Source: Stramenopiles sp. TOSAG23-6 (taxonomy: Eukaryota). Taken from it: a DNA stretch of 32,840 nt. Made by a program: the position numbers and the translations under genes. Location of the stretch: assembly GCA_900128565.1 (NCBI GenBank), contig LT635957.1, forward strand, positions 1 through 32,840, written 5' to 3'. Positions 11,534-32,840 of the stretch are shown here, in pieces. Each line of letters opens with the position of its first letter. Positions within the stretch are counted from its first letter, which is position 1. The notes beneath the pieces are model-generated. The model was not told the DNA's origin and did not search any database. It saw nothing but the letters and a program-made list of their open reading frames with translations.

Positions 11534-11642
11534 GAGTTCTGTTCGGAACTTCGCGGATCGCTCCCAGGTATTCCAACACCACCGTGGACTGAATTTTATT
11601 CAGTTCAAATCTCCTAGTGGGTAATTCCAATTGCATTACACA

Positions 11643-12359
11643 ATGGTTTTGGGTGTACCAGTTGCCAATGGTGCTTCAAAAATCACTAGAGAATCTGTAC
11701 TCAGTTTATACCGCAAATGTTTGCGCACAGCGATGCGTTGTTGTCCTACAAATGAAAAGAGAATGGAAATGACTTTCTATGCGAGGCTGAAATTTAGGCA
11801 GAACTCTTCTCTTGTTGATAAAAATCGAATTAGATTAGCATATACAGACGGGTTGGAGCAAGTACAGAGTACTATCGCTTACCATATAGCATATTCTACG
11901 AGTAGAAACCAATTGGAAGAATTACCACGATCTGAATTTGGGAGGATAATACCAAATGAAGAAGGGTTGAAACCTTCTTTGAAAAGTGAAACTGCGGTTG
12001 CCAATAATACAGATAGTATTGAAACACATCAGAAAATTAAATTGGTGATGGGCCAACATAAACGTAGAATCTCTTCACACTCTCCGGTTGGTTTATTTCA
12101 ATTAAGAAAACTAATACAGAATACCTTCTGCGATGAGCTAAAGCAGTTACCTCCTTCACCTTCCACAGATTGTCCAGCAGCTAACTACACAATAGAATAT
12201 ACTGACGACGACGGTGATATGATACAAATAACTAATGATGAAGAACTGGTTGAAGCAATCCAAATAATGGAAAGTATGGGTACGTCCGTCGCGAAATTTG
12301 AAGTTCAACTTCAAACACCAGTTGATGATTCAGATGACTACAATAAACCTAATAAATAA
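11643..12359 (+). CDS. Complex1_LYR-motif protein fused to a C-terminal PB1 domain
   Basis: VLSLYRKCLRTA...ARLKFRQN...RIRLAYTDG is the LYR pattern. KIKL...KRR...IEYTDDDGDMIQITNDEELVEAI is PB1 with an acidic OPCA motif. First ATG is at 11643; the ORF-track start at 11631 is TTG. Confidence 0.85.
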   Translation: MVLGVPVANGASKITRESVLSLYRKCLRTAMRCCPTNEKRMEMTFYARLKFRQNSSLVDKNRIRLAYTDGLEQVQSTIAYHIAYSTSRNQLEELPRSEFGRIIPNEEGLKPSLKSETAVANNTDSIETHQKIKLVMGQHKRRISSHSPVGLFQLRKLIQNTFCDELKQLPPSPSTDCPAANYTIEYTDDDGDMIQITNDEELVEAIQIMESMGTSVAKFEVQLQTPVDDSDDYNKPNK

Positions 12360-15400: not shown

Positions 15401-18400
15401 CGAGAAAAGTCGCGGCGTACTAAAGGATACAGCATAGGTTCGACACCATCTACTTCCATTAGCATTAACGTTTTTCCAAATCGCACAGCTAACTCCACTT
15501 GGTTTGCAAATCGAGGATCTTGGGACGGTAAGCATTCTACGGTAACACCACTTTTTTGTAAATGTCCTTTCAACCAAGATGTTGCAGCAGAAGACGGGTC
15601 AATAATGAAAGGTGTCCTCTTAGAATTCAAGATAACTATACTATTTTCCATTGTTAGATTGTCAGATGGCAAACCTGCTGCTTTCCAGGTTAATTGCTCA
15701 CTTTCAGATGATAAAACAGAGCGAAAATCAAATGAATCCAAACCTGTGATTTTCGTCCATACCCTAGTAGCTTGTCTACGAATATTTTCATCGCTTTTTG
15801 CTAGATATGTGACAAAGCCTGCAGCTAAAAGAATGCGATATGGCAAATCTTGTACCTCAGAACGAAGTTGTTTCACTGTACTCTCCCACCGAGATTGTTC
15901 ACCACTTAATTTTCCTAATAGAGTTTCTGCTTTTTCAAGTACAATTTCAGTTTTTTCTAAACTTGAGCGAGTTTGTTCAGCTTCGCGTGTCTTTTGTGCA
16001 AACTCTTTCTTTAGTCGATTTACTTTATTTTGTATTGTCTTCAGCTCCTTGGCATTACTTTTTAACTTCTCGGATGCATATTTTAATTCGGAATTAGCTT
16101 TGTCAAGCTCTTCTTGCAGAGGCATAACAGTTTCTAAAACTACAGAATATTCAATGTTTGCCTTGACCCATTCTGCAAGAGGTGCAGCAGCTATAGATAC
16201 ACGACGAATCGCTTTCTTTTCAAATGAATTCGGATTCTTCTTCATCGTTTTACCAACTAATTTTCTCATCTCTCTTGTGATTCTCGCAGTATCAAAATTT
16301 AAAATGTCGTCCTTTACTCCACGTTTTCCTAGGAAGTTCCTCATCGATAACCAAGAAGTATCATTAATTCCAAGCAAAGTCAACACCGCAGATAAAACAT
16401 GTCTAATAGGATCTGGTGGTGTCTTTAAAGAACGAATTTCATCAAGATTCTCGCTCTTAATCTGACCAACGGCTTTTTTAGCAGCATCGAGTACAGGTTG
16501 AATCCCACTGAGCTCTTCTTCGATAAGACCTTTACGTTTATCTGTTTTGCTCTTTGCCGCAGATAGAACTGTTTGCAACTCAGTAACTTCACTCTTTCTT
16601 TCAGATGCAAGTTCTAATGCCTCAGTTATCTTTACCATTGCAGCATCGGCCTCCTGTTGTTTTTCCGCTAATGTAGCTCTCTGCTGAACAGCATTCTTTG
16701 AAAGTTCATCAACTGTCATCGATGCTTCCTGAAGTTTTGCAAGTCCTCCCTCCATTCGATTTGCATTGCTCAAAATATCAACTTTCATATTTTCATATAG
16801 TATAAGATACGTTTCGAGAAAACTCATGAAATCACGGGGGGTTGCTGTGTCCGTTTTCCTTCTAAAAAATGCATTTTCACTATCTTCATCGTCCCCGCAT
16901 AAAAGGCAACTTTTATGTATATCAACCATACTCTGAACTAAAGTATCGCTATCTGCTACTTCTTCGAGGAAATCAGGCATTAACAGTTTTGGTACTACAA
17001 GCATTGAGGAATACTCCCATTCACCAAACCATTGTATTGAGCATCTCGTAAACAAAGCTGGATTACTCATGCACCTCTGTCGAAATTCAGGTGAAATGTG
17101 GTCCATACCCAGGGCTATATGTACGTTGTCACGACATCTTTGTACAAAATAATCAAAAGCTGTTTTATACACCATATCTAGACCTCGTTCGTTCATTTCC
17201 TCTTTTAATGGGGAAAGTAACTGCTCTAATTCTTCATGTGTATATAAACCTGAGATTTCTCCAGCAGATAATAAAGAATTCACTGACTGTAAAATATAGT
17301 CACCGATGAAGTGATAATCTTCTAAATAGAACACAACTGGTCGACCTTCAATCCCACCTTCAAATAAAACATTTTTTAAATCAACATGAAATGATTTTTG
17401 AGAATATCTCCTAGTTATAAATGGTGTAATGAAACGAATATCCTGCATAAATGCACATAGTTGTACAGTAGTTTTCCTACCACACCCGCTACGACCAACA
17501 AGGAGAAGAGAACCTCCTGGTCTAGACAAAACCCGATCTACTCGAGAAATATGTTCCAACACTTCAGTGAATAGTAATAATGTTAAATCTTTTTCCTCGC
17601 GCTCATATAACAACTTACCTCGCTTCACAACATCAATAAAATCAGATTCACTCACTCGTATAAGTTTCCGAAAAGATTGTTCGGTCATATCACTTTCTTT
17701 GTTTTCGTCTCCACTTAGGACTTCACCATTATCTTTGCCTTCAGATGCATGCTTTCCTTCTATTCCATTCGAAGAAGAATCTTTCACTAAAGTACTAAAG
17801 AAAATATTTTCTAGATCAATTCTATGGGACCAATCTTTTCTAAACAATGCGCTTAATATGGTGTCAAACTTCTTTTCACTAGACGAATCAACTAAACGGT
17901 CCTTCATTAGACGCCTTGCCTCGTATATCACAACATCGAGAAGTGATTCGATACTTAAGTCATAATGACCAAGGCCTAGAACCCAATTTGTAAGATCTCT
18001 TGGTGTGAGTAGATAATGTCGGTGCTCATCTACAGTGAACTTTGCTCGAATTTGCTCATAAAATTTTACCATTGTACTTGCCAATTTCTCGATATTTTTG
18101 ACTTGTTTGAACGCTTTATCAGCATCTCTTAAGGCAACACCGGAAAGAGCAGCACGTAAGTATATAGTATAAATGTAAGACAATTCGTCCGGGGTTGGTT
18201 CCTCCATGTAGGCTATATTTACAATGGCCGTGAAACGTGATGATAGCTGGTGTCTACCCAAAGTTGTGGCTGGATTAATAGAACATACTACGACTACACG
18301 ATCTAGACCAAGAAATTCCAAATCGTCGTCGTAAAAACCTTGAAAAGTACAAAGCTGTTGTAAAAACGCGACGAGCATACTTGTATTATACTTATCAGGT

Positions 18401-21400
18401 TTCGATAAATTAATATTTTTCAAGAAAAGAACTAGTCTTTCACAGTCACGGGGGCGTAATACTCTACCGGTGTTTGTAGAGAATACACCACACGATGATC
18501 GTAGTTTTTGAATGACATGCTCAGCAGTTGTGCGTGCATTACAATGCAATGTACAAATATTTGTATTTTTGTGACTTCCCAACACTTCTTCTATCAATGC
18601 AGATTTACCGGAACCTTCAGGCCCGACAATTATAAAAGGTTTCATATTCTCTGCCCAAGTTCCTACCATTGTGACATTTCTTTGGTATGCGGCTGTCGGT
18701 ATTACAATGCCTCTACGAAGAGTCTTTGGATCGAGTGATATGTGGGGAGCATGTGATATGTACTGTATCAGTTTATGTGTTTTAGAATCCCAGACACTAT
18801 TTAAGGGATCTTCTGGATCAGGAGGACGCTCATTGGCCCAACTAAATAATTGTGTTGCTAGATTTGCACGATCTTCTGTTACGAGATTTCCACCTAAACC
18901 TCGAATAATTGCGCGAATAAATTGGGCAAGTTCCGTAACATTTTCTAAATGAGAAAGTCCATTATTTACCGTACCAACCATTGTAGTATCAACGACAAAT
19001 CTATCAAGGTCTAGGACCCATTTTAATGCACGATAAAAGTAATCATCAATCCAGCTAACCATAGCCAATTGATTGGCGCTTGGTAAAGTAGAAAGCCATT
19101 TTCTAACTAACCTCTTTACGTCTACATCTTCATCGGATAGAAATATCATACCCATCCTAGATATTGTTGCTGGTGATGCGAATTGTAAGTCATGTGTCTC
19201 AAAAAGAAAATTGACATTCGGTCCAAAATTTATTCTTTCCCCACTTGGAAGAGTTAGCAAATGATTGTCATCCAATACAGAATTTAAAGACTCAATCCAT
19301 TCAGGATCAACGTCACCATCACAAATAATCCAACTTCGAACATTCGAAGGTTCTTTGACTACCTGCTTCGCAGCTGATGTAAGTACGCCATCAAACCACT
19401 CTCTCGTATCTAAATCCATATGTCCCAGTAATAGTTCTCTGGGCATCGATTTCGGATTCATCACATATGTTTTTAGTTCCTGACCACATTTTATCATTGC
19501 TTCTTTCAGTACCCGCCAAACTGTACTTTTACCACACCCAGAGGGCCCGACAATGACACAACCCATTCGCTGATCTAATGACTCTTTCAATTGTAACATT
19601 TTACTTAATTGCCCCTCATCAAATTCCAATGAACCTCCAAAGGCACCATCGTTCTGCTCCATTACAGCTCGTATTGCATCCTCAAGTTTCGGTACGGCAA
19701 TGTCTTCAACCTTGGCGTTTGGAAAAATATCGCTACATAACCCAACGAACCGACTCGCATCTTGGTAAGTTAATTTAGATAAAGTATTCACCCGAACAGA
19801 TTTGATAAGAATTTCTTCTTCTGCTGTTTCTGTGATTGTAGTCTCGCCCGATTCTGCTTTCAAGTTCTGAATAAGTTTTCCACCTGTGACTAAAATAGAT
19901 TTTAGAGCGCGAAGTCCCCAATCATAATGTTGTTGAGGGCTTAACAGTTCTTTACTCAGACCAAACAAACTACATATCTTCTTGCCCAATTCTTTTGCAT
20001 GTTTGAAACCTTCGGAGTATAAGATCACATTTGCAATAAGCTCATTATCTGGTCTCGACATTGCAACTGGTCTGAAAAGTTGCTTCAAATTATCGGGAAG
20101 TTTTGACCTTCCCCCATATCCTTTTTTAGGTGGGTTTAAAGTAACAAATATACCTGCATTGGAATCCACTTGAATATTTCGTCCAAGCAAAGACATTCTT
20201 TCATCCTTATTTTTGATTGCAGCTTGAATTAATTGAATCTGTTGTGACACAGCAGATAACTGATCTTCTTTTAATCTATTAAATTCGTCGAAACAACCCC
20301 AAGCTCCACATTTAACCAAACCGGTAAAAATACGACCCATCGATTGAAAATCAATCCCCTCGTCGCAATTGAATACTAAAACTTGTCTACCTAGAGCCGC
20401 ACCTAATGCTTTTACAGATTCTGTTTTCCCTGTACCAGCAGGCCCATAAGGATTACCCCCGTAACCTTGATGCATCCCTTGAGTGAGTGTCAAGTAACAC
20501 TTGTCTGTTAAAGGTGTATGTACTAATTTCGATGCATTACCTTGATACTCATATGTATAATTAAATTGAGCATTGCTCATTTTCGCAATACATAAGTCTC
20601 TTTTGTTCATATAGAAGCGCAATTGTTTCTGCCATGACCATGTATTTATCGACGGACAGCCATTTTGTATTAAGTAATCAACAACGTCCATATTATGAAT
20701 CAAATCTAACACCATCGCCTTAACTTTAATGCGAATTAGAGGCTTTCCGGTGAGGTCATAGCTTGTGTAGGTTTGTAGTGTTTCTGCCAATTGAGTTTTT
20801 AGTGATGCTAAATTTCCATTATGTATGGCAGCTTCTGTTCTCAAGGTGAAATTAACTATTTCAGAGAGACAAAGAACTTGCGATGCAAATCGAGTCATAT
20901 CAAGTGATTTCATAGCTAAACAATCTACAAGTTGCGTCTGCAGAGCATTTTTACTCTCCTCTTGTAGTACAATCAACCATTCCTCTGTTTCTTCAGAAAC
21001 CGGGACTGGGTCAGGCAGTTGAACAACTTCTCCCTTACCTGACTTTATTGCAATGATTTTTGAATTGTCCTCATTAAACTCAACAGTTTGAACACCTTGG
21101 AATAGCTTCTTTAAATGAGCCTGTATAACAGTTGGATTTTTAGCTTGACCAAGAATTTCTAATAAATCTTCATCGCCAATAAAATAAAATCTTGGCATTT
21201 TTTCACGTTTTTGTTCCAAGAAATCCGCCAGTGCTTTTGTACATCTTTCGAGCTGTTCGAGTAAAGCTTCAACATTCGATAATAAATTTGGGTGTACAGA
21301 AGAATCACACAATGTTAAAACTCGTTTATCGTCTTCAACTTTCGACATTATATCACGAAATTCGTCGTCAATTCTTTGAAATCTTTGATGTTCATGAGGC

Positions 21401-24400
21401 AAAGCACCACGTCCAAAGATTGGTTCTAAATAAAGCCATTTTCGTTGAATTAAGTTAAGATTATGTAAAATTTGATCTAAATCTGAGAAATTCTTCTCGA
21501 ATACAGATGCTTCTGCGGCAAATGCACGAAAGTATGGCGAATCTTTGAGTGATCCAAGTAGCGATTGATTGTCTCCTAAAGCAGTGAAAAGATCTTTCCA
21601 TTCAGTCAGGAGCATTGTCGTTCTACCCAGCTCTGTGTGTTCAAACAGAACAAGCTCAGCCGAGGCACACCAGTCTTTCAGCTCTACCATAGCCTCGCGG
21701 ATACGAACTTCGCCAGTAGCTCGGGCAGTAAGGTCTCGGCAAAATTTGTCACTTTTTGCAACAGCTTCTAATCGATCCAGAAAGTGCCCTGCATTGAGAT
21801 TCTCAAGTCTAGTGCCCTTTGGGATTCCAAGTTGACGAAACAAAGAAGCCCAATGAACTTCATTAAATGGTACATCACCTTTACAGAATTTAAGTGCAGG
21901 TAACGCAGACTTTAAAATGCCAAGCACTTCCTTCAAATGTATAGAAACAACATCTTTTTTTGTTTTGACTTTAGGTAACCAGTTTTGTACAAAATCAGAT
22001 AATTCGTAAATCCTTGTACGAAAATTAATCCAATCTTGGACACGAAATGCTTCCCATTCTTCTAGATATTTTTGCATTAAACTCCAACTCTCCTGGGTTT
22101 CTTGCATATCAGCCTGTAATTCTGTTAATGTTGGAAATTTTGGCACAGGCATATCAAAATGTACACAATTATTTTTCAGTGTATTTACTTCTTTAACTTT
22201 TTCTTCCATTTGTTCTTGCCAATCTTCAAGAGAATCAAATATACCTTGAATTGTTTCTGGATTCCAATTATTGACTTCTCCCTGAGGCTTAAGTGCATGC
22301 CATCGTAAAGCTAATTTCTCAACTGATTCATTAGCTTCTTTTATGCGCATGTCAATTTCTCCTTTTAACGTTTCACGTTGTTCCTCCACCAAGTCATTAA
22401 AAGCCTCCATAGCAACTTCAAAATTTTCCCATCTGGAAGGAAGCCTTCCGAGACGAACACGAACCTCTTCAACATCAACTCGATTACCAGCGACACTAAT
22501 GAGTAATTTTCTTCTTTCATCCGCTCGCCTCATTTCCATCTTTATTGACTTCTTTGAACCAGATAATTCTCCCCATGCCTTTTGTGCAAGACCTATTTCT
22601 TCTATAGATGTAGGTCTGGAGTTGAGTTGTTGCATGCCATTATCAAGGAACTCCTCAACTGTTGAAACCATCCGCAGTACAGATCTTTTCAGGGAAAGCA
22701 GAAGAGCATCACTCATTCGTTGTATATGATCTTCTACAGCTGATTTAAATGGCGCTGCACTTACATTAATACAATCCAGCTTGTAAAATTCTGGTAGCTT
22801 TTCGCTTTGTTTTAATCTTTTTTTTAACATTGCAAAATTAACTTGATACTCAGCCGCAGAGCTTACGTTTTCTTCGACATATTCGTCCATATCCGGAACA
22901 GTGCCCAATGCCACCCATAACTCTAAACCTTGTTTCAATTCCTTCAAACGCCGAAAAAGATCTTCTGCCTTTTTATATACCTGTATTAGACTTTCAGCAT
23001 TTTCTTTTTCGATACTTTTATAGACTGCTTTATTACCAAAACCATCAAAAGCAACGGGTATAGCTAAAAACCGACGCAATTCACGAAAATATTGTGTACG
23101 TATATCTTCTATCGCAGGACGGAATTCTAGACGTCGCTGAGTGAAACATAATTCAACCTTAATTTCCAACATATTTTCATTCAAAGATTCAAGACCCATA
23201 CAATATCCAGCTTCGAGTGCTTTACACAATTGATGATCCCAATGTAACTTCCAATTTGCCATCCTTTCTGTAGGATATTTTCGAGTTAAATCAGAGACCT
23301 TATCTCGCATATCGAACCATTTACTTTTCCATTGATCTCTTTGGCGCAGTAAATCGATATTCATTAACTCCGCAGTTTGCACTGCCAACTGCATATGTAT
23401 TTTACGCAAACTTCTATTTTCCTCAGACAGTGCATTTGCAGATAGTTGTAAATGCTCCACAAAGTCTTGACATTCTCGAGGGTTATTCCAAGTAACAGCC
23501 TTTTTTGCCCCTCGCTTGTTTCCTCGATGTAACTGGTTTTCAAAACGCTTCAATGCATCTAGCAGCATAGGCTTCTGTGTGACGACAATTTGATTTCCCA
23601 TTGAGTTGTAAAAGTTAGCTATCTTTTTGAGCATTACTCCATATCGGTAATATTTCTCACCATCACTTGCAACGCCTTTGATTCTCGAATTCACTTGGTG
23701 ACCAAGATCTTCAAGTTGTCTAACTTCCCTCAAAAGTCGCACAAGCTTTTCCGAATAATTTACAATGAGCTCTCCATCGACATCAATTTCCATTAATTGG
23801 CCCGAAACTTCCAACGAAAGCTCGCCATCATCAAGTAGGTATTCCGTAGCATCTACCCAATTTTGAAATTCGTTTCGACGCCAAGTACGCAATTTTTCCA
23901 TGAGTTCTTGAATCATTCCCTTGAAATCGTCGTATAAAGAGAGATCTGACAGAATATGTCTAGACCGAGTAAGTAGTCCTCTCATTCGAGCTTCACATTG
24001 TTTGGCCCATACTATATTATTTGTGACTATCGGAAGGTTACGACCTAATGGAGCACCTGACGATACATTAGCAGAAGATTTACTCTCTCTTTGGTGCATC
24101 GCACGAGATTGGTCTTTGACAGACTCGTAATCTTGGTCGCACTGTTCAACATATGCTGATAACTGAGCGAGTAAGGTTTCTCTCTCTCCATGTAGAGCCT
24201 TTGCAATTGTACGCCGCCCAAGAAGTTGCCGATAGCGAAGAAATTCTCTGAGCAACTGCTGCGGATGTTCGGACATCCCTGAAATTTGTTTCCTTAGATT
24301 AGAAGCGATATGTTGCTCAATGGGTGCTAGCTGACGATCATGCATAGCAACTGCATCTTCCCAGCGAGATTTTGTATATGGATTATAGTGCAAAGGACGT

Positions 24401-25569
24401 AGATCCGAAGCATTAAATGGATCAAATGCAGAAGCAACATTGAGTTCACGCTGTTCTTGTATTGATAATAAACGTAACAATTCTTCGTGTGTTGTGCGAA
24501 CTTTTAGTATACTTTCTAATCTCTCGGATAAATTTTTTATGTGCTGCTCTTCATAAGCAGCACCTTCCCAAGGATGCTCCTCACAGGATGGCCAGAAAGA
24601 CCCACTTAGATCTGCAGTCACAAGTGACCATCTTTCACAAACAAGAATAGCTTCCTGTAGACGACTCGCAACTTCCGCATATGCACCCTGCCATATATCA
24701 GTTGAACCGAGATAACTGGAAACATATCGAGCCAATGCACTGGCAATCACAGAAAATATATGTTTCATGCGATGTTGAGGATACTGAGATGACTGCCGAA
24801 CATCTGCTTTCCAAATATCATCGAGACAGTTTTGTGTGTCATCCACTAATTCTAAAATATCAGGCAAAGTCATTGTTAAATTATCACCCATTTCGTCTAC
24901 CTTACTTATACGTTGGAACCGACTTGAAATTCCCGAGAATATTTCTGAAAACTTTTGAGCTGACTCACCATTCGTACGATTATTGGCTAGCATTTTCCAA
25001 ACGTCGAACTCGTCAGATGGAACGAGGATAGAAGCCATAGCTTTTTTGTCGTGAATATCAGCTAACTCTGACGAACCTCTTCGTACTAATGAACCTAAAC
25101 CCGAATCCATAACAGCTAATAACTTTTGCATCTTTGGTGCCATTTTTGTTGACCAAGATTTATCACGTAAAAGCATTGGTGCATAGACCCGATGAGTTGC
25201 ATTATATAATGCATGTATTGGAGAATCTAACATAGAACTAACCATGATAACTTGTGCAAAGTTGTCGTCCGTAATAGGAGTAGGTCTTAACTTTACAAAA
25301 AGTACCTGGGAACAACGGAAATCTTTGCCGTCCCATACTGTATCGCTACGCATTTTATTCGATAAAACAATTTCCGGTGTTGAGTTGTTTTTTGTTGGTA
25401 TTGAGCATATTACTTGCAAAAGAGAGCAATTTTCATTCTCTAGAAATGTTGTCACTGCTTTAGACGATTCGATACAATCTCGTACTTTACTAGAGGTTTT
25501 AGAATCATCCAAGTATCCAAGCAGTGTACTCGCAGAAGTAATTATAAACTTTCGTCGACTGTCACTCAT
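12421..25569 (-). CDS. DYNC2H1: Cytoplasmic dynein-2 heavy chain (retrograde IFT dynein), 4382 aa, intronless
   Basis: P-loops GPAGTGKT, GPSGCGKS, GPEGSGKS and degenerate GRSGCGRK; WGCFDEFNR; QQHYDWGLRALK; stalk coiled coil. Features I recognise as dynein-2-like: LHWDHQL.KALE, SRPDNELIA, IQHEKPELE. Confidence 0.95.
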   Translation of the reverse strand: MSDSRRKFIITSASTLLGYLDDSKTSSKVRDCIESSKAVTTFLENENCSLLQVICSIPTKNNSTPEIVLSNKMRSDTVWDGKDFRCSQVLFVKLRPTPITDDNFAQVIMVSSMLDSPIHALYNATHRVYAPMLLRDKSWSTKMAPKMQKLLAVMDSGLGSLVRRGSSELADIHDKKAMASILVPSDEFDVWKMLANNRTNGESAQKFSEIFSGISSRFQRISKVDEMGDNLTMTLPDILELVDDTQNCLDDIWKADVRQSSQYPQHRMKHIFSVIASALARYVSSYLGSTDIWQGAYAEVASRLQEAILVCERWSLVTADLSGSFWPSCEEHPWEGAAYEEQHIKNLSERLESILKVRTTHEELLRLLSIQEQRELNVASAFDPFNASDLRPLHYNPYTKSRWEDAVAMHDRQLAPIEQHIASNLRKQISGMSEHPQQLLREFLRYRQLLGRRTIAKALHGERETLLAQLSAYVEQCDQDYESVKDQSRAMHQRESKSSANVSSGAPLGRNLPIVTNNIVWAKQCEARMRGLLTRSRHILSDLSLYDDFKGMIQELMEKLRTWRRNEFQNWVDATEYLLDDGELSLEVSGQLMEIDVDGELIVNYSEKLVRLLREVRQLEDLGHQVNSRIKGVASDGEKYYRYGVMLKKIANFYNSMGNQIVVTQKPMLLDALKRFENQLHRGNKRGAKKAVTWNNPRECQDFVEHLQLSANALSEENRSLRKIHMQLAVQTAELMNIDLLRQRDQWKSKWFDMRDKVSDLTRKYPTERMANWKLHWDHQLCKALEAGYCMGLESLNENMLEIKVELCFTQRRLEFRPAIEDIRTQYFRELRRFLAIPVAFDGFGNKAVYKSIEKENAESLIQVYKKAEDLFRRLKELKQGLELWVALGTVPDMDEYVEENVSSAAEYQVNFAMLKKRLKQSEKLPEFYKLDCINVSAAPFKSAVEDHIQRMSDALLLSLKRSVLRMVSTVEEFLDNGMQQLNSRPTSIEEIGLAQKAWGELSGSKKSIKMEMRRADERRKLLISVAGNRVDVEEVRVRLGRLPSRWENFEVAMEAFNDLVEEQRETLKGEIDMRIKEANESVEKLALRWHALKPQGEVNNWNPETIQGIFDSLEDWQEQMEEKVKEVNTLKNNCVHFDMPVPKFPTLTELQADMQETQESWSLMQKYLEEWEAFRVQDWINFRTRIYELSDFVQNWLPKVKTKKDVVSIHLKEVLGILKSALPALKFCKGDVPFNEVHWASLFRQLGIPKGTRLENLNAGHFLDRLEAVAKSDKFCRDLTARATGEVRIREAMVELKDWCASAELVLFEHTELGRTTMLLTEWKDLFTALGDNQSLLGSLKDSPYFRAFAAEASVFEKNFSDLDQILHNLNLIQRKWLYLEPIFGRGALPHEHQRFQRIDDEFRDIMSKVEDDKRVLTLCDSSVHPNLLSNVEALLEQLERCTKALADFLEQKREKMPRFYFIGDEDLLEILGQAKNPTVIQAHLKKLFQGVQTVEFNEDNSKIIAIKSGKGEVVQLPDPVPVSEETEEWLIVLQEESKNALQTQLVDCLAMKSLDMTRFASQVLCLSEIVNFTLRTEAAIHNGNLASLKTQLAETLQTYTSYDLTGKPLIRIKVKAMVLDLIHNMDVVDYLIQNGCPSINTWSWQKQLRFYMNKRDLCIAKMSNAQFNYTYEYQGNASKLVHTPLTDKCYLTLTQGMHQGYGGNPYGPAGTGKTESVKALGAALGRQVLVFNCDEGIDFQSMGRIFTGLVKCGAWGCFDEFNRLKEDQLSAVSQQIQLIQAAIKNKDERMSLLGRNIQVDSNAGIFVTLNPPKKGYGGRSKLPDNLKQLFRPVAMSRPDNELIANVILYSEGFKHAKELGKKICSLFGLSKELLSPQQHYDWGLRALKSILVTGGKLIQNLKAESGETTITETAEEEILIKSVRVNTLSKLTYQDASRFVGLCSDIFPNAKVEDIAVPKLEDAIRAVMEQNDGAFGGSLEFDEGQLSKMLQLKESLDQRMGCVIVGPSGCGKSTVWRVLKEAMIKCGQELKTYVMNPKSMPRELLLGHMDLDTREWFDGVLTSAAKQVVKEPSNVRSWIICDGDVDPEWIESLNSVLDDNHLLTLPSGERINFGPNVNFLFETHDLQFASPATISRMGMIFLSDEDVDVKRLVRKWLSTLPSANQLAMVSWIDDYFYRALKWVLDLDRFVVDTTMVGTVNNGLSHLENVTELAQFIRAIIRGLGGNLVTEDRANLATQLFSWANERPPDPEDPLNSVWDSKTHKLIQYISHAPHISLDPKTLRRGIVIPTAAYQRNVTMVGTWAENMKPFIIVGPEGSGKSALIEEVLGSHKNTNICTLHCNARTTAEHVIQKLRSSCGVFSTNTGRVLRPRDCERLVLFLKNINLSKPDKYNTSMLVAFLQQLCTFQGFYDDDLEFLGLDRVVVVCSINPATTLGRHQLSSRFTAIVNIAYMEEPTPDELSYIYTIYLRAALSGVALRDADKAFKQVKNIEKLASTMVKFYEQIRAKFTVDEHRHYLLTPRDLTNWVLGLGHYDLSIESLLDVVIYEARRLMKDRLVDSSSEKKFDTILSALFRKDWSHRIDLENIFFSTLVKDSSSNGIEGKHASEGKDNGEVLSGDENKESDMTEQSFRKLIRVSESDFIDVVKRGKLLYEREEKDLTLLLFTEVLEHISRVDRVLSRPGGSLLLVGRSGCGRKTTVQLCAFMQDIRFITPFITRRYSQKSFHVDLKNVLFEGGIEGRPVVFYLEDYHFIGDYILQSVNSLLSAGEISGLYTHEELEQLLSPLKEEMNERGLDMVYKTAFDYFVQRCRDNVHIALGMDHISPEFRQRCMSNPALFTRCSIQWFGEWEYSSMLVVPKLLMPDFLEEVADSDTLVQSMVDIHKSCLLCGDDEDSENAFFRRKTDTATPRDFMSFLETYLILYENMKVDILSNANRMEGGLAKLQEASMTVDELSKNAVQQRATLAEKQQEADAAMVKITEALELASERKSEVTELQTVLSAAKSKTDKRKGLIEEELSGIQPVLDAAKKAVGQIKSENLDEIRSLKTPPDPIRHVLSAVLTLLGINDTSWLSMRNFLGKRGVKDDILNFDTARITREMRKLVGKTMKKNPNSFEKKAIRRVSIAAAPLAEWVKANIEYSVVLETVMPLQEELDKANSELKYASEKLKSNAKELKTIQNKVNRLKKEFAQKTREAEQTRSSLEKTEIVLEKAETLLGKLSGEQSRWESTVKQLRSEVQDLPYRILLAAGFVTYLAKSDENIRRQATRVWTKITGLDSFDFRSVLSSESEQLTWKAAGLPSDNLTMENSIVILNSKRTPFIIDPSSAATSWLKGHLQKSGVTVECLPSQDPRFANQVELAVRFGKTLMLMEVDGVEPMLYPLVRRDFSRQGSRLVVQIGEKTIDFNEKFVMYMVTRNPNPSIPPDAASLITVVNFTVTKSGLEGQLLGATIQHEKPELEKQKSDMLQREESFKVQLASLEKDLLKTLAESSGNLLENQDLIDSLTQTKIKSKEIMIALEESTKASEELDSQRDVYLDFARDGAQLFFLVKQLQNINHMYQFSLQSYLGLFNATLDTKVTYETIHERLKVLTPLLIQRTLFYVGRSLFKADRQMWAIHLVHGMYPNEFEENEWEFFGGYLAPDLRARGEPKGFPSWAPRERASTFRLFSDTFPELVSRLELLDSDMWSKWSRSATCERNFPKKMAQKLSAFQRLLTVQVLRPDRLQSAMDVFACELLGLSSISPTPTNVSRLHQEESSCETPILFIVTTGVDPCKDLQDYAAQTVGEDNYFEMAMGGGTQDKAIRLLQRCAERGTWLCLKNLHLVIAWLPVLEKTLNSLHSHKNFRLWLTAESHDKFPTILVQQALKCTVEAPPGVKKNLQRTYDSWNEEFVSAGSGKRSQVMFLLAFIHAIVQERRNYIPQGWSEFYEFSLGDLRAATNVIESALKSSDTSGGGRESKHGGAVHGLWNTVHGMMENALYGGRVSNIFDMRVLKAYLSFYFSDAMLSGNIEIPSIGLSIPKSSNHGEYFSFIGRLPDSDAPSLFGLPANIERSAQRANSTRIIKDLKRLKRSSGEHSAFNQDVWRAQLGPVIDTWEKTLKNSKANGSLISPRYNEGKSREGKDEGKNNFEGKSKSFEGGAFDPESPVSQFVQMELAGASSLMHIVDGDLKAVKQVLHGNALLTPAIANTARCLMNSIVPVRWDRKWEGPETPQVYMSAVAAKCEAVHHWRELINSKSLLDSPLNLADLLHPGTFLNALRQETSRVTKCPLDDLKLISAWDRSLVKGSLKVCVEGLLLQGAVFTDKVLEEANVNDLELMSAPTCYIGFVPNDTVEPYGSENTLHAPLYYNTSRERLLTELGLPIKGQREKWILAGVALFLEDC

Positions 25570-25892
25570 TGTGGTTTGCTTTACTTTGAGAGGACTACAA
25601 ACGTATTCGGGATAGAGCTAATCTCAAAAAGCCTGAGCAATATCAAGGTTAAATAAGTTCACTTTTAAAGGAAGATATACAAAGATGATGAACAAAAAGA
25701 GTTTGGCGAGCTACTACTAACCAATCTAGCCTACTTATAGTGAATATTTTAACGTAGTATTGCCTAAATGTAACTGTTGTTTTTCCGTTTCATCTCCGAA
25801 CTACGAGTCCTACGTTATTAAACGGTTGGTAGGGTACCGCTAGTTAAAGAAGGATTTCATAATCTGTAGAACGTGCGCCGCTGATACTAAAA

Positions 25893-27300: not shown

Positions 27301-28131
27301 TTATAACCACCATATTAACATAATAATTAAAGTATACAATGACAATGATGTAAACGAAAGCACAAAAACATTAAAGCAAAACAAATTATTGCAACCTATT
27401 ACAGTACCAGTCCATGGACAGTAATGATCGATTTCTTCTATCTTATAATATGTGCAATATGTAAGCTATGAAACAAATGAATAAACTCTGTTGTACAAAG
27501 ACAAATAGTATCACTGTATTATACATAAAAAATACAGTGTTTGAGTTTCCGAGCAAAACAAAATCCTTCGCTCGGACATTGGCGGTCTAAATGAATCTGT
27601 CAGTGGATGCTGTCGCCAGTTTTCAGCTTGCGGTGCGGAATACCTGGGAAATATTCCAGGTGAGCGACAAGCAGTACACATGAGAGACACTCCGGTAAGA
27701 ATAACTAGAGGAATGGCAGGTATGTATAGCCCCCACGGTAAATTTGGCAGAGTAACCACAAATAATAGTATCGATGGTAGGATAAGAAGTACCGGCACAG
27801 TAATGAAGACGAGACATACCCAATCTGGACCAATAATACATCTTGGATACGGTTTTCCATCTTTTGTTTTGCTTTCCGAAAACATCCAGAATCGACCAAC
27901 AGGTTCGGGGCGACAACAGCGAAAACAGCAGAATACACACGGAGGTTTCGGTGACGACCGAGTTGGAACATAATTAAGTTGACCATTCTCAATTATGATG
28001 GGTACTCTTTTTACAATCCTTTCACCACTTTTATTTAGTGAGTTGTTTGTCGCGTCGTCTAACATATGTACTGATGAGCTATCCGGAGAGTTGCTCGCCC
28101 TTACAGGTTTAACTTTTGCCTGTAAGGACAT
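27301..28131 (-). CDS. DHHC-family protein S-acyltransferase (DHYC variant), two exons: 28131-27536 and 27442-27301
   Basis: Exon 1 has GPDW, two TM helices, PGIFPR and FRPP..FCSETQTL. Exon 2, translated by hand, reads IEEIDHYCPWTGTVIGCNNLFCFNVFVLSFTSLSLYTLIIMLIWWL*. Joining them restores the usual C-x10-DH spacing. Confidence 0.88.
27443..27535 (-). other. Putative non-canonical intron, 93 nt, GT...AA (CT|GTATTTT...ATTATAA|GATA)
   Basis: In-frame insert with TGA and TAG stops between homologous DHHC segments. No GT-AG pair keeps the frame open. Confidence 0.7.
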
Positions 28132-28523
28132 TTATCAAAGTGGCATCATATAGAGAGCTAATTTACCATAAGTGAACTTAACTGATCTCGTTAATTAAGG
28201 TAAGAAACAACTATTCATAAAATAACCACATCTGGTGCGTTTCATTGTATTTTTTCAACTTAATTCTCTTAGGAATTCGTCATCCGTTAACTTTTATTTA
28301 ACGGAAAAAAGAAAAAGATCAAGATGTATTCTCTTACTCTTACTATTCAATATATCACACAATCTTACAGAATCTTCTTTATATATAATAATATAAAATC
28401 AAAATATAAATAAAAAATGCGTGAATATCAAATATAACGTTTATTATTTTAAGATTTCCATTCATGACTGTTTTCGGAAAAGAAACACTGAAAGGGCTAT
28501 TTATTAGAATTAAACAGGGTAAA

Positions 28524-29546
28524 TTAAAAAAAGAAATCCGAATTTATATCGTGGTCCAATATTTTTTTGGAAGGGAATTCTTCCCCAGTCTCACCAGTTC
28601 TCAGCACATCGTGCTCTCGAGTACCGCGTTTCCGTGGTGTCACTACCCTGACAGCGTGTAGTGTACGCATTGCATTGAGCTGTTCAAAAGGAATATACTT
28701 TTTGTCCGTATAGTTAGAAGTTTTCTCAGAGCCTAAAGAAAAGCGTCTTGTATTGCGATGTTCAAAAGGAACATACTTTTTGTCTTTTAACTTTTTGAGG
28801 GAGTCTAAAGAAAAGCGTCTTGTATGTCTTACTAGTCCTTTTTTGGGCTTCGGAATAATTGCAACAACTTCTCCTGATGGTGTCGACTTTTTCTTTGTCA
28901 CTGCTTCAGACAATACTTTAGGTAATTTATATATCCTTTCAAAGGAAAATGTCATACCTTCTGGGACTCCATGACCATGTATATCAAGCCATTGTGCTAA
29001 TACCATTTCCAAGCAATCATAGTTAACTTTCTTTGTAGATGATTTTTCTTTATGGTGAAGAATGACTTCTCGAAGGATGTATGCATCGATATCTTTCAAG
29101 GGAACTTGCTTCGTAGAATACTTCACGTACGCAGATTTCGCTATTCGCTTTACATCAAACATTGCGTCATTTCGAGAAGTGCCACTGTGGCGAAGTAACG
29201 GAGAATCTCCAGTGTCATCCTGACTTTTGTTATGCTCTCTCAACCACTGAAGGAATGTTTCCGCGAGGACTTCATCAACGTTTTCTTCAGATAGATCTTC
29301 ATAAGGCAAAGTATTGACCTCCAAAGCTAAGTTCACCAATGTACTGACATTATTGTAGAAAGCTTCGATTGTTGAAATAGCACCCATGTATTCGAAGTTT
29401 TCAAATAGGAGTTGAGGTGTACAAATAATATGTTTCTGCTCTTTCATTTCAACTGAGAGTACTGAGCTAGGGGCCAGCAAAAAAGCAGCGTGTACAGCTG
29501 GGCTGTACATAACGTAGAATAAACACACAATAAAAATATACTTCAT
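28524..29546 (-). CDS. Hypothetical protein with a duplicated TRRFSL...DKKY.PFE motif; start uncertain
   Basis: 1-kb open frame. First ATG at 29546 (MKYIF), alternative ATG at 29510. The frame stays open to ~29630 after a ctatag, so it could be a terminal exon. No family recognised. Confidence 0.6.
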   Translation of the reverse strand: MKYIFIVCLFYVMYSPAVHAAFLLAPSSVLSVEMKEQKHIICTPQLLFENFEYMGAISTIEAFYNNVSTLVNLALEVNTLPYEDLSEENVDEVLAETFLQWLREHNKSQDDTGDSPLLRHSGTSRNDAMFDVKRIAKSAYVKYSTKQVPLKDIDAYILREVILHHKEKSSTKKVNYDCLEMVLAQWLDIHGHGVPEGMTFSFERIYKLPKVLSEAVTKKKSTPSGEVVAIIPKPKKGLVRHTRRFSLDSLKKLKDKKYVPFEHRNTRRFSLGSEKTSNYTDKKYIPFEQLNAMRTLHAVRVVTPRKRGTREHDVLRTGETGEEFPSKKILDHDINSDFFF

Positions 29547-29809
29547 CGATTTATCCGCCTTTATCGAATAGTGCACTTTGTTTTTCAATGGATTTCTTTC
29601 TCGACTTTTTTTTAACTGTGTCGTTAAAACCTATAGCTAGGCTGCGTTTAAATGAATTCAATAGTATAAAGACATAGCCTCCCCTGGGGGCTGTCCTTTA
29701 AAAAAATAGTAGCAAATTTGAAATTATTTGCCATCCCAAAAAAATTGGAATTTCGTGCGTCTGTTTTTTTTACAATAATCGTATCTTCCTATCTTTCGTT
29801 CCTCACGAG

Positions 29810-30509
29810 CAGGGCTGGCATCGGACGAAATCGGCCGGTTTCGTTCCATTATAATTTATAATGGCGTTCCATTCCATTACATTCCATTCCATGAGAGCGC
29901 CGGGGATTTCGTGTATAATGGAATGGAATGCCATTATAGATTTTCAGATTCCATTATAATGGAATGGAATGGAATGGGATTTTTTTGGAAAATTTATAAT
30001 GAGCCATTATAATATATAATGAAATCTCATTATATTATAATGAAATCTCATTATATTATAAGCCTCGTATTACCTAGGGTTAGGGTTTTCCCCTTTATTC
30101 CTTAAAAAAAAAGATCACATAAACAAGTGTAATTTCACTAATATTCAATATTTTTCTAAAGTAAATAGCAGTAAATGATCCCATGATTACATGCAATCTT
30201 CCTATAGCCTTCTTGTGTACACTATATTTGTGAAATTACATTTTATTTTGTTGCTGCCAATTTTTTTTTTTTTTTTTGGTTTTCGTAGTAAATTTTGTAC
30301 CTAACGATTTTAGCTAACGATTTAGAAAATTATTCCATTATAACGCAAAAAAAATTGGGTTATAATGGAATGGAATGCCATTATAGATTTTCAGATTCCA
30401 TTATAATGGAATGGAATGCCATTATAGATTTTCAGATTCCATTATAATGGAATGAAACTCCATTCCATTTTTTGATTTCGTGTTATAACGGCGTCCGATG
30501 CCAGCCCTG
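29810..30509. mobile_element. Non-autonomous hAT-superfamily DNA transposon (MITE), 700 bp
   Basis: Perfect 18-bp TIRs CAGGGCTGGCATCGGACG (29810-29827) and CGTCCGATGCCAGCCCTG (30492-30509). Perfect 8-bp TSD CTCACGAG at 29802-29809 and 30510-30517. CAG termini, subterminal repeats, no ORF. Confidence 0.95.
29914..30442 (+). repeat. Subterminal 41-bp unit TATAATGGAATGGAATGCCATTATAGATTTTCAGATTCCAT (29914-29954, 30361-30401, 30402-30442) and a 21-bp tandem pair (30015-30056)
   Basis: Exact copies read directly. Many GGAAT/ATTCC pentamers and CCATTATAATGG palindromes. Confidence 0.92.
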
Positions 30510-30655
30510 CTCACGAGTTGTTGTAGCAAAATCTAAAAAATCTAAATCCTTCCAAGTTTACATTACATTATTCTTAGATTTAGATAATTTTCGGATAGTA
30601 TTCAAACCTTTAGCATTCTGAACTATTTATATCTGCACCAAATTCAGATCCAGCA

Positions 30656-31831
30656 ATGAATGATTCAGAAATAACCGAGCGTAGCTCACAGTTAAATATT
30701 TGGTTAGATGAACTTTCAAAAACCCCAACAGCAAAGCTTTTGGGAATTAGCCCTGCTGAACGTGACGAATTATTACGATTACGAGACGAAAATAATTCTT
30801 TACAGATGAATCTTGAGTCAATTGAAGATGAAATTTCAAGAAAAGAAAAAGTATTGAGAGATACCAAAGTAAAAGCTGCTACAGGGAGAAAAGAGTTACA
30901 GTCTGATTTAGCTCCATTTGCTAGAGTCCTCCAAGACCTGGAGGTTGAAGAGCGAGTATTACGACACAAAGTTATAAAAGAGAATAAAGTTGCCGAGTTA
31001 AAGGAGTTTCTAGAGCGCCAGGAAGCATTACGAAAGGAGGAGGAGAAAATGAAAAGAAAGTTGGAAGAAGCAGAGGACGAGTTACAAGAACTGCGTGATT
31101 CCATTGCCAGTGTTGATCCTGGAAGTTTACTGCCAAATCAACTAAAAAATATTGCATTGTATATAAAATGGAAAAAACTGCTCGCAAAGAAGAATAAAAT
31201 GGAGAGAAAGAATCGTGAAGAATCGTACAAAAAGATGGAAATCGAAGAAGCCAAAGAGGAGTTGGACATTATCGTAAAAGAAATGGAGAAAAAGGCTGAA
31301 ATTTTGCAGATAGAAGCAAAAACTAAAGAACATGAAGATGCAATCAATGAATGTAACACAAGAATTGCAACAATGGAGATGGGTACTAAAATAGCTATGA
31401 GCGAAATGCAAAGTTTTGGTGAAGAATTTAAGAAAGTTAGTGCCGCAATTAAGAAAAGTAAAGAATTGAAAACAAAAGAGTTACATGATCTTTTACAACA
31501 TAAAAAAAAATTACAACAAGCGGAATCATGGTTTAATGAGCTAATGAAGAAGGAAGTAGATCAAATACGCAAACAAGTATCTGACAAATGGAAAATCATT
31601 CTCCAAGAGCAACAAGATAAAGCAGCGATCAAACTTGATGAAGAACGTCAATCTTTCAAATCTAAAATAGAGAATGCAAAACATGAGTTGGGTGTAAAAT
31701 ATTCAGGTGGGTTTGAAACACTTTTAAATGCAGCAAAAGAAAAATATTTAGTTGCCAAAACTGAAGCAGAACAATTACAACAGGAGGTTAATCATAAAAA
31801 AATACTTGTTGATCAAGCTGAAAAGGATATT
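30656..31831 (+). CDS. Long coiled-coil protein exon (E/K-rich)
   Basis: Heptad-like E/K/L-rich ORF. Coding character ends at ...EKDI|GTATGT (31832); the ORF-track tail VCFIFFQ... is intronic. The frame is open back to 30614 after tttag, so it may be an internal exon. Confidence 0.8.
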
Positions 31832-31925
31832 GTATGTTTTATTTTTTTTCAAATTCGTTTTTTTTTTCGTACGAAATTTTGTACCTAATGAATTTTTTGT
31901 TTTGAAATATTTTTCCAAAATACAT
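31832..31925 (+). other. Putative repeat-type intron, 94 nt, GTATGT...ATACAT|G; paralogous to 32742-32840
   Basis: Shares gtatgttttatttttttt, ttcgtacga.attttgtacctaa and tttgaaatatttttccaaaatacat with the copy 910 bp downstream. Confidence 0.65.
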
Positions 31926-32741
31926 GCGTTTCACCACAGGCTTAAATCAAATGGTGTTTCTCTGTCAACGGGTGAATGCACGTTTTCATCATGAATGTAT
32001 TACTTTATAGTTTTCTTTTTTCATAGTACATTTCGTACCTAACGATTTTTTTTTTTTTGTAAAATTCTTGTTTTTTTTCACAATACATGTGGTAATATTT
32101 TAGAAGCTGTAAATCTCACACTCAATATTTTTGATGTTTCCTATGTTGATCGAAATTTAGGTAGTAGTGGTATGACCATTCAACTACTCACAGCTTCAAA
32201 TGGAACATTTCGTGTTGACACAGACTTGAGTGATTTAACACATGCGCGCATGAAACGATCTGGTGTTGGATGTGATTGTATCTGTTTTGACTTGTACGGT
32301 ATTCACTTACATTTCATTTTTTTGTTTTTTTTGTTTTTTTTTGTTAGGTACAAATTTTACTATGAAAAAAATATTTCAAAAATATTTTTGAATTTGTATT
32401 CACTTATTTCATTTTTTTTTTCATCGTACATTTTCATAAAAACAAATTTTATATCTAACGATGTTTTTCAAAAATATAACATATTTTTCTACAATATTAA
32501 CGTCCTTCCCACCCAGTACCTTTATTTATTTTTAATCCAAAGAATACAAAATCTAAAATAGACAGTAAATCTTCAGAGCATTCTTCAAGTCGGTCGCGAC
32601 GAACTCATAATCGGACTCACTCTCGTTCAACATTTCGATATACTAAAAATAATACTAAAATATCTAAAACGTCTAAAAATAATCGAAACCCCAACCCTAA
32701 TTATAAACATACTCAAAGATACGAAGAATCATTTGGTGCAT
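31926..32741 (+). CDS. DEPDC5: DEPDC5/Iml1 (GATOR1 subunit) homologue, SABA/vWA-like domain exons 31926-31992, 32089-~32293 and ~32500-32741; partial
   Basis: Hand translation GECTFSS|CGNILEAVNLTLNIFDVSYVDRNLGSSGMTIQLLTASNGTFRVDTDLSDLTHARMKRSGVGCDCICFDL|RPSHPVPLFIF is colinear with the DEPDC5 segment as I recall it ([28 protein letters not shown]...GVFEVD..L..LTKQRMIDNGIGVDLVC...PLHAVPLF). Confidence 0.85.
31993..32088 (+). other. Putative non-canonical intron, 96 nt, GAATGT...ATACAT|G (alternative: 92 nt GT...AT from 31997)
   Basis: In-frame TAA at 32040-32042, then no AG before the conserved GNILEA at 32091. Flanked by the direct repeat CATG (31990-31993 and 32086-32089). Confidence 0.7.
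32294..32499 (+). other. Putative non-canonical intron(s), ~203-206 nt, exact borders ambiguous
   Basis: Separates CICFDL from RPSHPVPLF. In-frame TAA at 32498-32500, and the nearest AG (32515-32516) lies inside the conserved PxHxVPLF motif. Confidence 0.6.
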
Positions 32742-32840
32742 GTATGTTTTATTTTTTTTTTGTATGAATTTTTTTTCGTACGACATTTTGTACCTAACAA
32801 AAATTAAATTTTTTTTTTGAAATATTTTTCCAAAATACAT
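32742..32840 (+). other. Putative repeat-type intron, 99 nt to the window edge, GTATGT...ATACAT
   Basis: Begins with GTATGT where the open DEPDC5 exon loses coding character. Paralogous to 31832-31925. Confidence 0.6.

Follow-up and report, generated by a model that had tools for sequence, protein, structure and literature searches.

A candidate introner-like repeat with non-AG 3′ ends in the genes of a stramenopile-like contig

Genomes that have escaped the GT-AG rule of splicing on a large scale are very few, and those named in the papers cited below are euglenozoans (euglenids and diplonemids), Amoebophrya, and Fritillaria. Such genomes are natural experiments on why a 3′ AG is nearly universal and on how it is enforced by U2AF, Prp8, and the small nuclear RNAs. 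Here we examine 32,840 nucleotides of contig LT635957.1 (GenBank assembly GCA_900128565.1, deposited as Stramenopiles sp. TOSAG23-6; positions 1 to 32,840 of the forward strand), a stretch that is hereafter called the window and in which open reading frames (ORFs) are broken by five T-rich interruptions, I1 to I5. A single dispersed repeat accounts for I2, I3, I5, and the second half of I4, and GT-AG excision fails at I1 to I4 as long as the protein-homology anchors on both sides are kept. From these sequences we lean, if only slightly, toward an introner-like element that is removed as an intron with a 3′ end other than AG.

In the larvacean tunicate Fritillaria, a YAY triplet precedes the 5′ splice site and also forms the last triplet of the intron, and 3′ AT is the commonest ending (44% of the introns in F. 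pellucida and 34% in F. borealis), 3′ AC accounting for 28% in F. borealis (PMC13326754). Duplication or divergence of U2AF has also been found in F. borealis (PMC13326754), and the inverted repeats and target-site duplications present in the Fritillaria introns are ascribed to a transposon origin (reviewed in PMC11282704). The boundary signature of the window is similar: CAT stands on both sides of I3, I5, and a further copy on a metagenome contig (L003), I2 has CAT on its 3′ side only, and I4 (ending in AAC) and I1 (ending in TAA) are not YAY-ended. Also shared with Fritillaria are 3′ AT/AC ends, a T-rich tract, and positions that seem to be lineage-specific, as well as, in putative form, inverted terminal repeats and target-site duplications suggestive of a transposon origin. 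The host, however, is stramenopile-like and not a larvacean tunicate; the 5′ end is GT or GA with a full GTATGT, as opposed to AG in the main Fritillaria classes; and the genome is very intron-poor, with a dynein gene of 4398 codons left uninterrupted.

In the introner elements of Amoebophrya A25 and A120, direct repeats of 3–5 nt extend across the exon/intron borders, with the border itself undefinable, and canonical motifs are said to be used by the introners of Aureococcus (PMC7789003). Repetition of the (here candidate) introns, direct repeats at the borders, putative terminal inverted repeats, and the lack of a transposase inside are common to Amoebophrya and the window; in contrast, the inverted repeat here is 7 nt long as compared with hairpin-forming repeats of 8–20 nt there (PMC7789003), and a canonical-looking 5′ site and a branch motif are found here, whereas the Amoebophrya elements have no consistent terminal dinucleotides. 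The introners of Micromonas and of the stramenopile Aureococcus anophagefferens, so far as described there, are likewise short and non-autonomous, bear direct and inverted repeats, and create introns in many genes of marine protists, but those are canonical GT-AG introns, which the copies in the window cannot be.

U12-type introns have the 5′ consensus /[AG]TATCCTT and a branch site TCCTTAAC located 10–20 nt from the 3′ end. In an AT...YAC register, most of the copies in the window would resemble the AT-AC introns of the U12 and U2 types, and their CCTAAC core resembles TCCTTAAC; nonetheless, no /ATATCCTT 5′ site is present, and U12-type introns were rejected on the grounds that the 5′ ends are GTATGT or ATGTAT and that the branch-like CCTAAC motif lies 37–46 nt from the end. 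In intron-poor eukaryotes such as yeasts, introns have GTATGT and TACTAAC and end with YAG. The window shares with them GTATGT, a CTAAC-type branch motif, and a genome of few introns; those introns, however, are alike in their signals only and end with YAG, whereas the copies here are alike along their full length.

A preliminary description of the window, which was made from the sequence, had correctly named Fritillaria and Amoebophrya among the lineages with abundant non-canonical introns but had not seen the match in the boundary signature (YAY and direct repeats). It had also stated that no such system was known from a stramenopile, and we indeed found none in the literature searched, a search that covered main texts and not supplements, which may hold tables of the GT/AT intron classes of Fritillariidae. 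As the window is nearest to stramenopiles (see below), it would represent another lineage with a known kind of non-canonical system. If true, the stramenopile case would be a clean one, with a canonical 5′ site and branch site and with the 3′ end alone altered, so that the 3′ requirement could be isolated; furthermore, gene callers bound to GT-AG would truncate or split the genes of this lineage in metagenome-assembled genomes.

Interruptions without a canonical excision

The five T-rich interruptions were found at the positions and with the termini that had been claimed for them. I1 (93 nt, positions 27443–27535) lies in a DHHC gene on the minus strand and has the junctions ACT/GTATTT..ATAA/G. 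The other four are on the plus strand: I2 (94 nt, 31832–31925, ATT/GTATGT..CCTAAT..ATACAT/G), which is a full copy of the repeat; I3 (96 nt, 31993–32088, CAT/GAATGT..CCTAAC..ATACAT/G), also a repeat copy; I4 (203 nt, 32299–32501, ACG/GTATTC..TTAAC/G), which is composite; and I5 (99 nt, 32742–32840, CAT/GTATGT..ACAT), another full copy, whose last base is the last base of the window. The 5′ end is thus GT in four of the five (GTATGT in I2 and I5) and GA in I3.

We enumerated all excisions that leave the anchors on the two sides of an interruption joined in a single frame free of stops, I5 being outside this enumeration with the window ending there. No GT-AG or GC-AG excision keeping the frame and the anchors was obtained at I1, I2, or I3, and none at I4 with PSHP kept. 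When only VPLF was kept at I4, there was a single GT-AG solution (32299–32516, 218 nt), which deletes the conserved P-x-H of PSHP. The failure of GT-AG at the homology-anchored sites, as originally proposed, is therefore borne out. Between the branch-like CTRAY motif and the proposed 3′ end, AG is absent from I2 to I5, and at I3 no AG occurs in 32043–32091, the sole interval possible for an acceptor. With the anchors kept, clean removal thus needs a 3′ end other than AG. The first AG on the 3′ side of the proposed ends is located at +13, +14, and +14 in I2, I3, and I4 (31938–39, 32102–03, and 32515–16), respectively; the use of that AG as an acceptor in I2 or I3 places TAA right after the junction.

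At I1, the upstream anchor is exon 1 of the DHHC gene (minus strand, 27536–28131), an ORF of 198 codons that ends with ..FRPPMSERRILFCSETQT(L), has a coding score of 0.16 per codon, and gives no Pfam match by itself. Exon 2 (minus strand, 27304–27442) begins with (L)IEEIDHYCPWTG.., continues into one transmembrane stretch and a stop, and matches PF01529 with an E value of 1.5e-7 over residues 9–51; its alignments, to PF01529 as well as to ZDHHC9 from the PDB, have their exact start at IEEIDHYC, right at the first codon past I1. The two ORFs are in one frame and are parted by two stops within I1, TGA at 27511–13 and TAG at 27466–68. Reassignment of stop codons was considered for these two and rejected, since the giant ORFs of the window are free of in-frame stops under the standard code.

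The other anchors belong to a piece of an Iml1/DEPDC5 gene on the plus strand, which consists of the exons Ea (31926–31992), Eb (32089–32298), and Ec (32502–32741). Ea has 22 codons (AFHHRLKSNGVSLSTGECTFSS, followed by the first base of a Cys codon) and a borderline coding score of 0.085 per codon. Eb, with 69 codons reading (C)GNILEAVNL...GVGCDCICFDLY(G), corresponds to the conserved core of the Iml1 N-terminal domain (PF12257, E value of 5.7e-17) and is 56% identical to its closest homologue, the distant protein P0122. Ec, (G)PSHPVPLFIFNPKN..., is open for 79–80 codons, and the tblastn matches of P0122, P0124, P0125, and P0127 begin at 32504. In terms of coding scores, for which the in-frame 5–95% range is ~0.19–0.60 per codon, Eb (0.49) and Ec (0.30) can be compared with the interruptions, which score 0.14 or less in every frame. 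An exhaustive HMMER search with Eb gave 519 proteins at E ≤0.001, and motifs were counted in the best 150 of the 519: GNxLE is present in 139 of the 150, and both landmarks in 113. In 110 of these 113 homologues, GxGxD and xPLF are separated by a distance of 16; counted from xPLF, position −4 is P in 110 of them and position −2 is H in 88. In the translation of the window, GNILEA comes directly 3′ of I3 and PSHPVPLF directly 3′ of I4. The anchor at I2 is weak, being only AFH of Ea as compared with AFHRF in P0122, 28 residues before GN.

The exact ends of the excision, which had been described as YAH/G, are a separate matter. That description is one of several equivalent registers. CAT direct repeats surround most copies, so that GT..AT, AT..AC, and other registers produce the same mRNA; indeed, in I3 and I5, with CAT on both sides, GT..AT, TG..CA, AT..AC, and CA..TA all yield identical mRNA. 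At I1 and I2, the registers give differing mRNAs, for example ..EKDIAFH.. (GT..AT) versus ..EKDAFH.. (AT..AC) at I2. It is conceivable that the interruptions are spliced with true ends of AT...AC and that GT...AT is a wrong register within the CAT repeat. The AT-AC pair is chemically compatible in both spliceosomes, and an AT..AC excision is available at every site: with frame and anchors kept at I3 (31991–32086, giving the same mRNA as GA..AT), I4, and I1; and, as read from the sequence, in frame at I2 (31827–31923, ATATTG..ATAC) and by a shift within the CAT repeat at I5. The 3′ end in this register is TAC in four copies, AAC in I4, and TAC or CAC in I1. We nonetheless consider AT...AC improbable as the true register. 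Its 5′ ends (ATGTAT, ATGAAT, and ATATTG) are unlike /ATAAGT or the U12-type /ATATCCTT, and a perfect GTATGT is left unexplained 2 nt inside the intron. At I1, AT..AC products have 21–24 residues between FRPP and IEEI as compared with 15 in the GT..AA product, the corresponding spacing in ZDHHC9 being, as we take it, ~11 residues; at I4, four extra residues are introduced, where the 203-nt solution already exceeds 110 of the 113 homologues by one residue. Indeed, the length of I4 itself is uncertain in that 203 nt gives a GxGxD–xPLF spacing of 17 instead of 16. We thus prefer the register G(T/A)...A(H)/G, because no other single rule accommodates all five sites and because, under it, GTATGT remains the 5′ site, the DHHC spacing comes closest to that of the usual cysteine-rich domain, and the fewest residues are added at I4.

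A dispersed repeat with intron-like signals

The interruptions had been regarded as independent introns sharing signals, and this view does not hold: one and the same mobile repeat makes up I2, I3, I5, and the latter half of I4, the pairwise identities of its copies being 58–87% (87% between I5 and I2). The copies are alike over the full length, having common TTTTCGTACGAAATTTTGTACCTAAC-like cores as well as both ends in common. A likeness confined to splice signals was accordingly rejected, as the identity spans the full length and antisense and intergenic copies occur. An nhmmer profile was built from five copies, which match it by construction; its independent detections are a copy on the metagenome contig L001 (E value of 1.7e-8), a partial intergenic copy on the plus strand at 30273–30337 (5.7e-7), and an antisense stretch at 32342–32374 (0.002), and I1 was not detected by the profile as a member of the family. 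A pattern scan of metagenome contigs gave three loci, L001, L002, and L003, of which L002 was set aside as a partial and weak match to the profile (E value of 0.0093); a scan of genome contigs gave a single match in Flavobacterium, which was taken as chance without inspection, and a scan of viral contigs gave no match. In all, in a small sample of three contigs, there are four full and two partial copies in the window and, elsewhere, one full (L003) and one partial copy (L001). Since copies are also found between genes, in one case in inverted orientation, and on two metagenome contigs that are unrelated, they constitute a family akin to introners or miniature inverted-repeat transposable elements (MITEs).

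On L003, a full copy of 104 nt at 2475–2578 stands between CAT and CAT/G inside an ORF, and its excision joins an ORF of 181 amino acids in frame to 48 more codons; no Pfam family was found above threshold for this gene, so the evidence for the junction there is the continuity of the ORF only. I4 is made up of a 5′ piece, the partial antisense copy at 32342–32374, and a sense copy at 32396–32501 (I4b). A second occurrence of the initial 25 nt of I4 (GTATTCACTTAC..) is found at 32396–32420, the two bracketing the antisense copy in an arrangement suggestive of nested insertion or of local duplication within the interruption.

In all six copies that interrupt an ORF (I2, I3, I4b, I5, L003, and L001), the repeat is in the sense orientation, and the sole antisense copy is the one nested inside I4; four of the six are in one gene, however, and the counts are hence not independent. 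CAT is found upstream of four of the six copies with a known 5′ flank (I3, I5, L001, and L003, but not I2 and I4b) and is the last triplet in all four of I2, I3, I5, and L003. A GTATGT-type 5′ site begins at the first base of a copy, a small GUAC..GUAC hairpin is present in the repeat copies, and a CTRAY motif (core CCTAAC) is located 37–46 nt from the 3′ end in I2 to I5 and L003, with a T content of 51–55%; a copy ends with ...ATACAT, which is followed by G. As to the U2-like donor and the CTAAC-containing motif claimed at the outset, the GTATGT-type 5′ site is confirmed and CTRAY is present in I2 to I5, but it is absent from I1.

Taking the repeat as an introner-like element removed as an intron, we propose the following. 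A mobile element of the introner/MITE type that is short (~94–106 nt), T-rich, and non-autonomous would have landed, mainly at CAT^G sites, in coding sequence and in the sense orientation, bringing with it a yeast-like 5′ site (GTATGT, with one GA variant), a branch-site-like CCTAAC, and a T-rich tract, but no AG. Excision of the element together with one flanking copy of CAT would then bring back the original codons, the most uniform register being G(T/A)...A(T/C/A) with G as the next, exonic base, for which AT...YAC would be equivalent in most copies. That the removal would occur at the RNA level, by a spliceosomal mechanism, and in this exact register is what we infer. Since I1, an unrelated interruption in the DHHC gene, shows the same kind of ends, the host spliceosome is suggested to tolerate non-AG 3′ ends beyond this element. 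A bolder proposal, which we offer tentatively and which may well prove wrong, is that the major spliceosome of this uncultured marine stramenopile-like flagellate would have no requirement for a 3′ AG genome-wide, with all of its few introns, whether transposon-derived or, as in the DHHC gene, not, having a strict GTATGT-type start, a CTAAC branch site, and A-H in front of an exonic G. Large-scale non-canonical splicing would then have arisen independently for a third time, and for the first time with the 5′ half still canonical, probably driven by an introner devoid of AG. In terms of the preliminary description, its general interpretation survives to the extent that the ends would be non-AG, and hence non-canonical, if spliced; the repeat family, the equivalence of registers, and the boundary match had been overlooked.

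The short inverted ends (CATGTAT/ATACATG), the flanking direct repeats, and the precise restoration of coding sequence would also suit elements that are cut from DNA and not from RNA, like the internal eliminated sequences of ciliates. We give next to no credence to this explanation; RNA is instead indicated by the sense bias of all six copies and by GTATGT, CTAAC, and the T-tract, all of which are strand-specific, and programmed DNA elimination is not known to us from stramenopiles.

Several observations weigh against splicing, and most of them would be consistent with ordinary MITEs, unspliced, in dead or dying genes, namely a 5′-truncated DEPDC5 and a degenerate DHHC gene at a repeat-rich contig end. 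Restoration of the frame is unspecific, because any recent and precise insertion with a target-site duplication does likewise. About 380 N-terminal residues of the Iml1 homologues are matched nowhere in the window, the homology starts abruptly at 31926, and the DEPDC5 piece adjoins an unrelated coiled-coil ORF across I2. The DHHC gene looks degenerate as well; its cysteine-rich domain lacks the zinc-binding cysteines, and its C terminus is short, the protein stopping after one more transmembrane stretch. Four full copies are present within 1 kb at the contig end and none in the 24.5 kb of the two giant ORFs, a clustering that relaxed selection would also yield. Close by, there is an element of 716 bp whose ends are inverted repeats, and the window ends inside a repeat. 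Also, the terminal inverted repeat is a weak signal of 7 nt only, and copy divergence cannot date the insertions, given that subfamilies of the repeat exist. The folds of the five interruptions are not unusually stable (z scores of −0.04 to −2.10), and only I2 pairs its ends, by 7 bp; the interruptions are thus not of the end-pairing type of euglenids or Amoebophrya. Word-based protein searches for transcript-derived sequences or close relatives, with exon 2 of the DHHC gene and with Eb, gave no match.

We nevertheless judge unspliced MITEs in decaying genes to be unlikely, though they are the main rival explanation and well worth keeping in mind. While a stop is expected at about one in 15 codons at the G+C content of 37–39%, Ea, Eb, Ec (22, 69, and 79 codons), and exon 1 of the DHHC gene (198 codons) are all open. 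The coding scores of Eb and Ec are normal, and Eb retains the invariant motifs. A plain MITE, furthermore, gives no reason for the start at GTATGT, the CTAAC motif, and the T-tract, nor for the consistent sense orientation of the ORF-interrupting copies in a compact genome. These are the very signals that an introner would require, and they are present on the sense strand only. Were this rival explanation true, a MITE family in decaying genes would be all that had been found, which would be of little interest.

Contig context and host lineage

The ORF that precedes I2 and runs into it (plus strand, 30656–31831) has 392 codons with a coding score of 0.43 per codon and belongs to no known family; in a comparison with the Protein Atlas, this coiled-coil ORF hit generic coiled coils only, with scores up to 0.87. 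Its join to the DEPDC5 piece could be a fusion, a truncation, or a mis-join of the contig. Since the window contains no N-terminal domain for the DEPDC5 piece, the possibility of a pseudogene or of a mis-joined contig is a serious rival. A broader explanation would be that no unusual splicing exists and that assembly or sequence errors (a mis-join via the repeat, or indels in T runs) or an unrecognized canonical exon structure account for what we observe. The window indeed ends exactly on a repeat copy, as assemblies do at repeats, and contains N runs; the coiled-coil/DEPDC5 junction at I2 is biologically senseless; and L001 is chimeric, its copy of this repeat being broken off after ~70 nt. 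Errors in T runs, however, leave the frames of the exons unchanged, and both I3 and I4 are flanked on the two sides by one conserved domain in the right order, so that a mis-join cannot explain them. In addition, the independent contig L003 has the same element and the same ends in an ORF. We accordingly attach little probability to errors or missed canonical exons as a general explanation. Past its break, L001 (1–1076) is AT-rich and carries an ORF resembling a bacterial short-chain dehydrogenase, and its far-end ORF contains ..DVYKRQ.., presumably the translation of a library adapter.

The 716-bp element mentioned above occupies 29802–30517 and has terminal inverted repeats of 26 nt that are 92% complementary, the interior being filled with ATTCCATTATAATGGAATGGAAT-type palindromic repeats. 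The partial intergenic copy at 30273–30337 sits within this element, which may serve as a carrier for the small repeat or be related to it as a larger form.

The contig is compact and intron-poor, with a G+C content of 37–39% and intergenic spacers of ~200–350 nt in the ORF map of the window. Its host lineage was examined with the gene for the cytoplasmic dynein-2 heavy chain (minus strand, 12421–25617), the single uninterrupted ORF of 4398 codons. The AAA1–AAA2 part of this protein is 74–70% identical to environmental proteins, and its named relatives are from brown algae, a raphidophyte, oomycetes, and a bolidophyte (70–72%), one dinoflagellate entry (70%), and animals (62–65%). No tunicate was among the at least 120 dynein-2 matches listed, no close relative was found in the protein database searched, and a comparison with the Protein Atlas hit generic dynein clusters only. 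Given that the best named relatives are stramenopiles and not animals, it is reasonable to place the window nearest to stramenopiles by this gene, in agreement with the label of a stramenopile-like genome given before; a Fritillaria-like tunicate, which was also considered as the source, was rejected by the same comparison.

Among the remaining genes of the window, the largest is an ORF of 3759 codons on the plus strand (2–11281), which is open at the window start, has no known family in Pfam, and contains N runs at 452–471 and 3376. It is followed by an ORF on the plus strand (11625–12359) in which Complex1_LYR and PB1 domains are detected with Pfam, an unusual pairing in one ORF. Scans of the whole window with Rfam and for tRNA gave no match. 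Between the DHHC gene and the 716-bp element, finally, an ORF of 368 codons without a known family (minus strand, 28524–29630) has internal direct repeats at 28670–28825 with a spacing of 72–78 nt.

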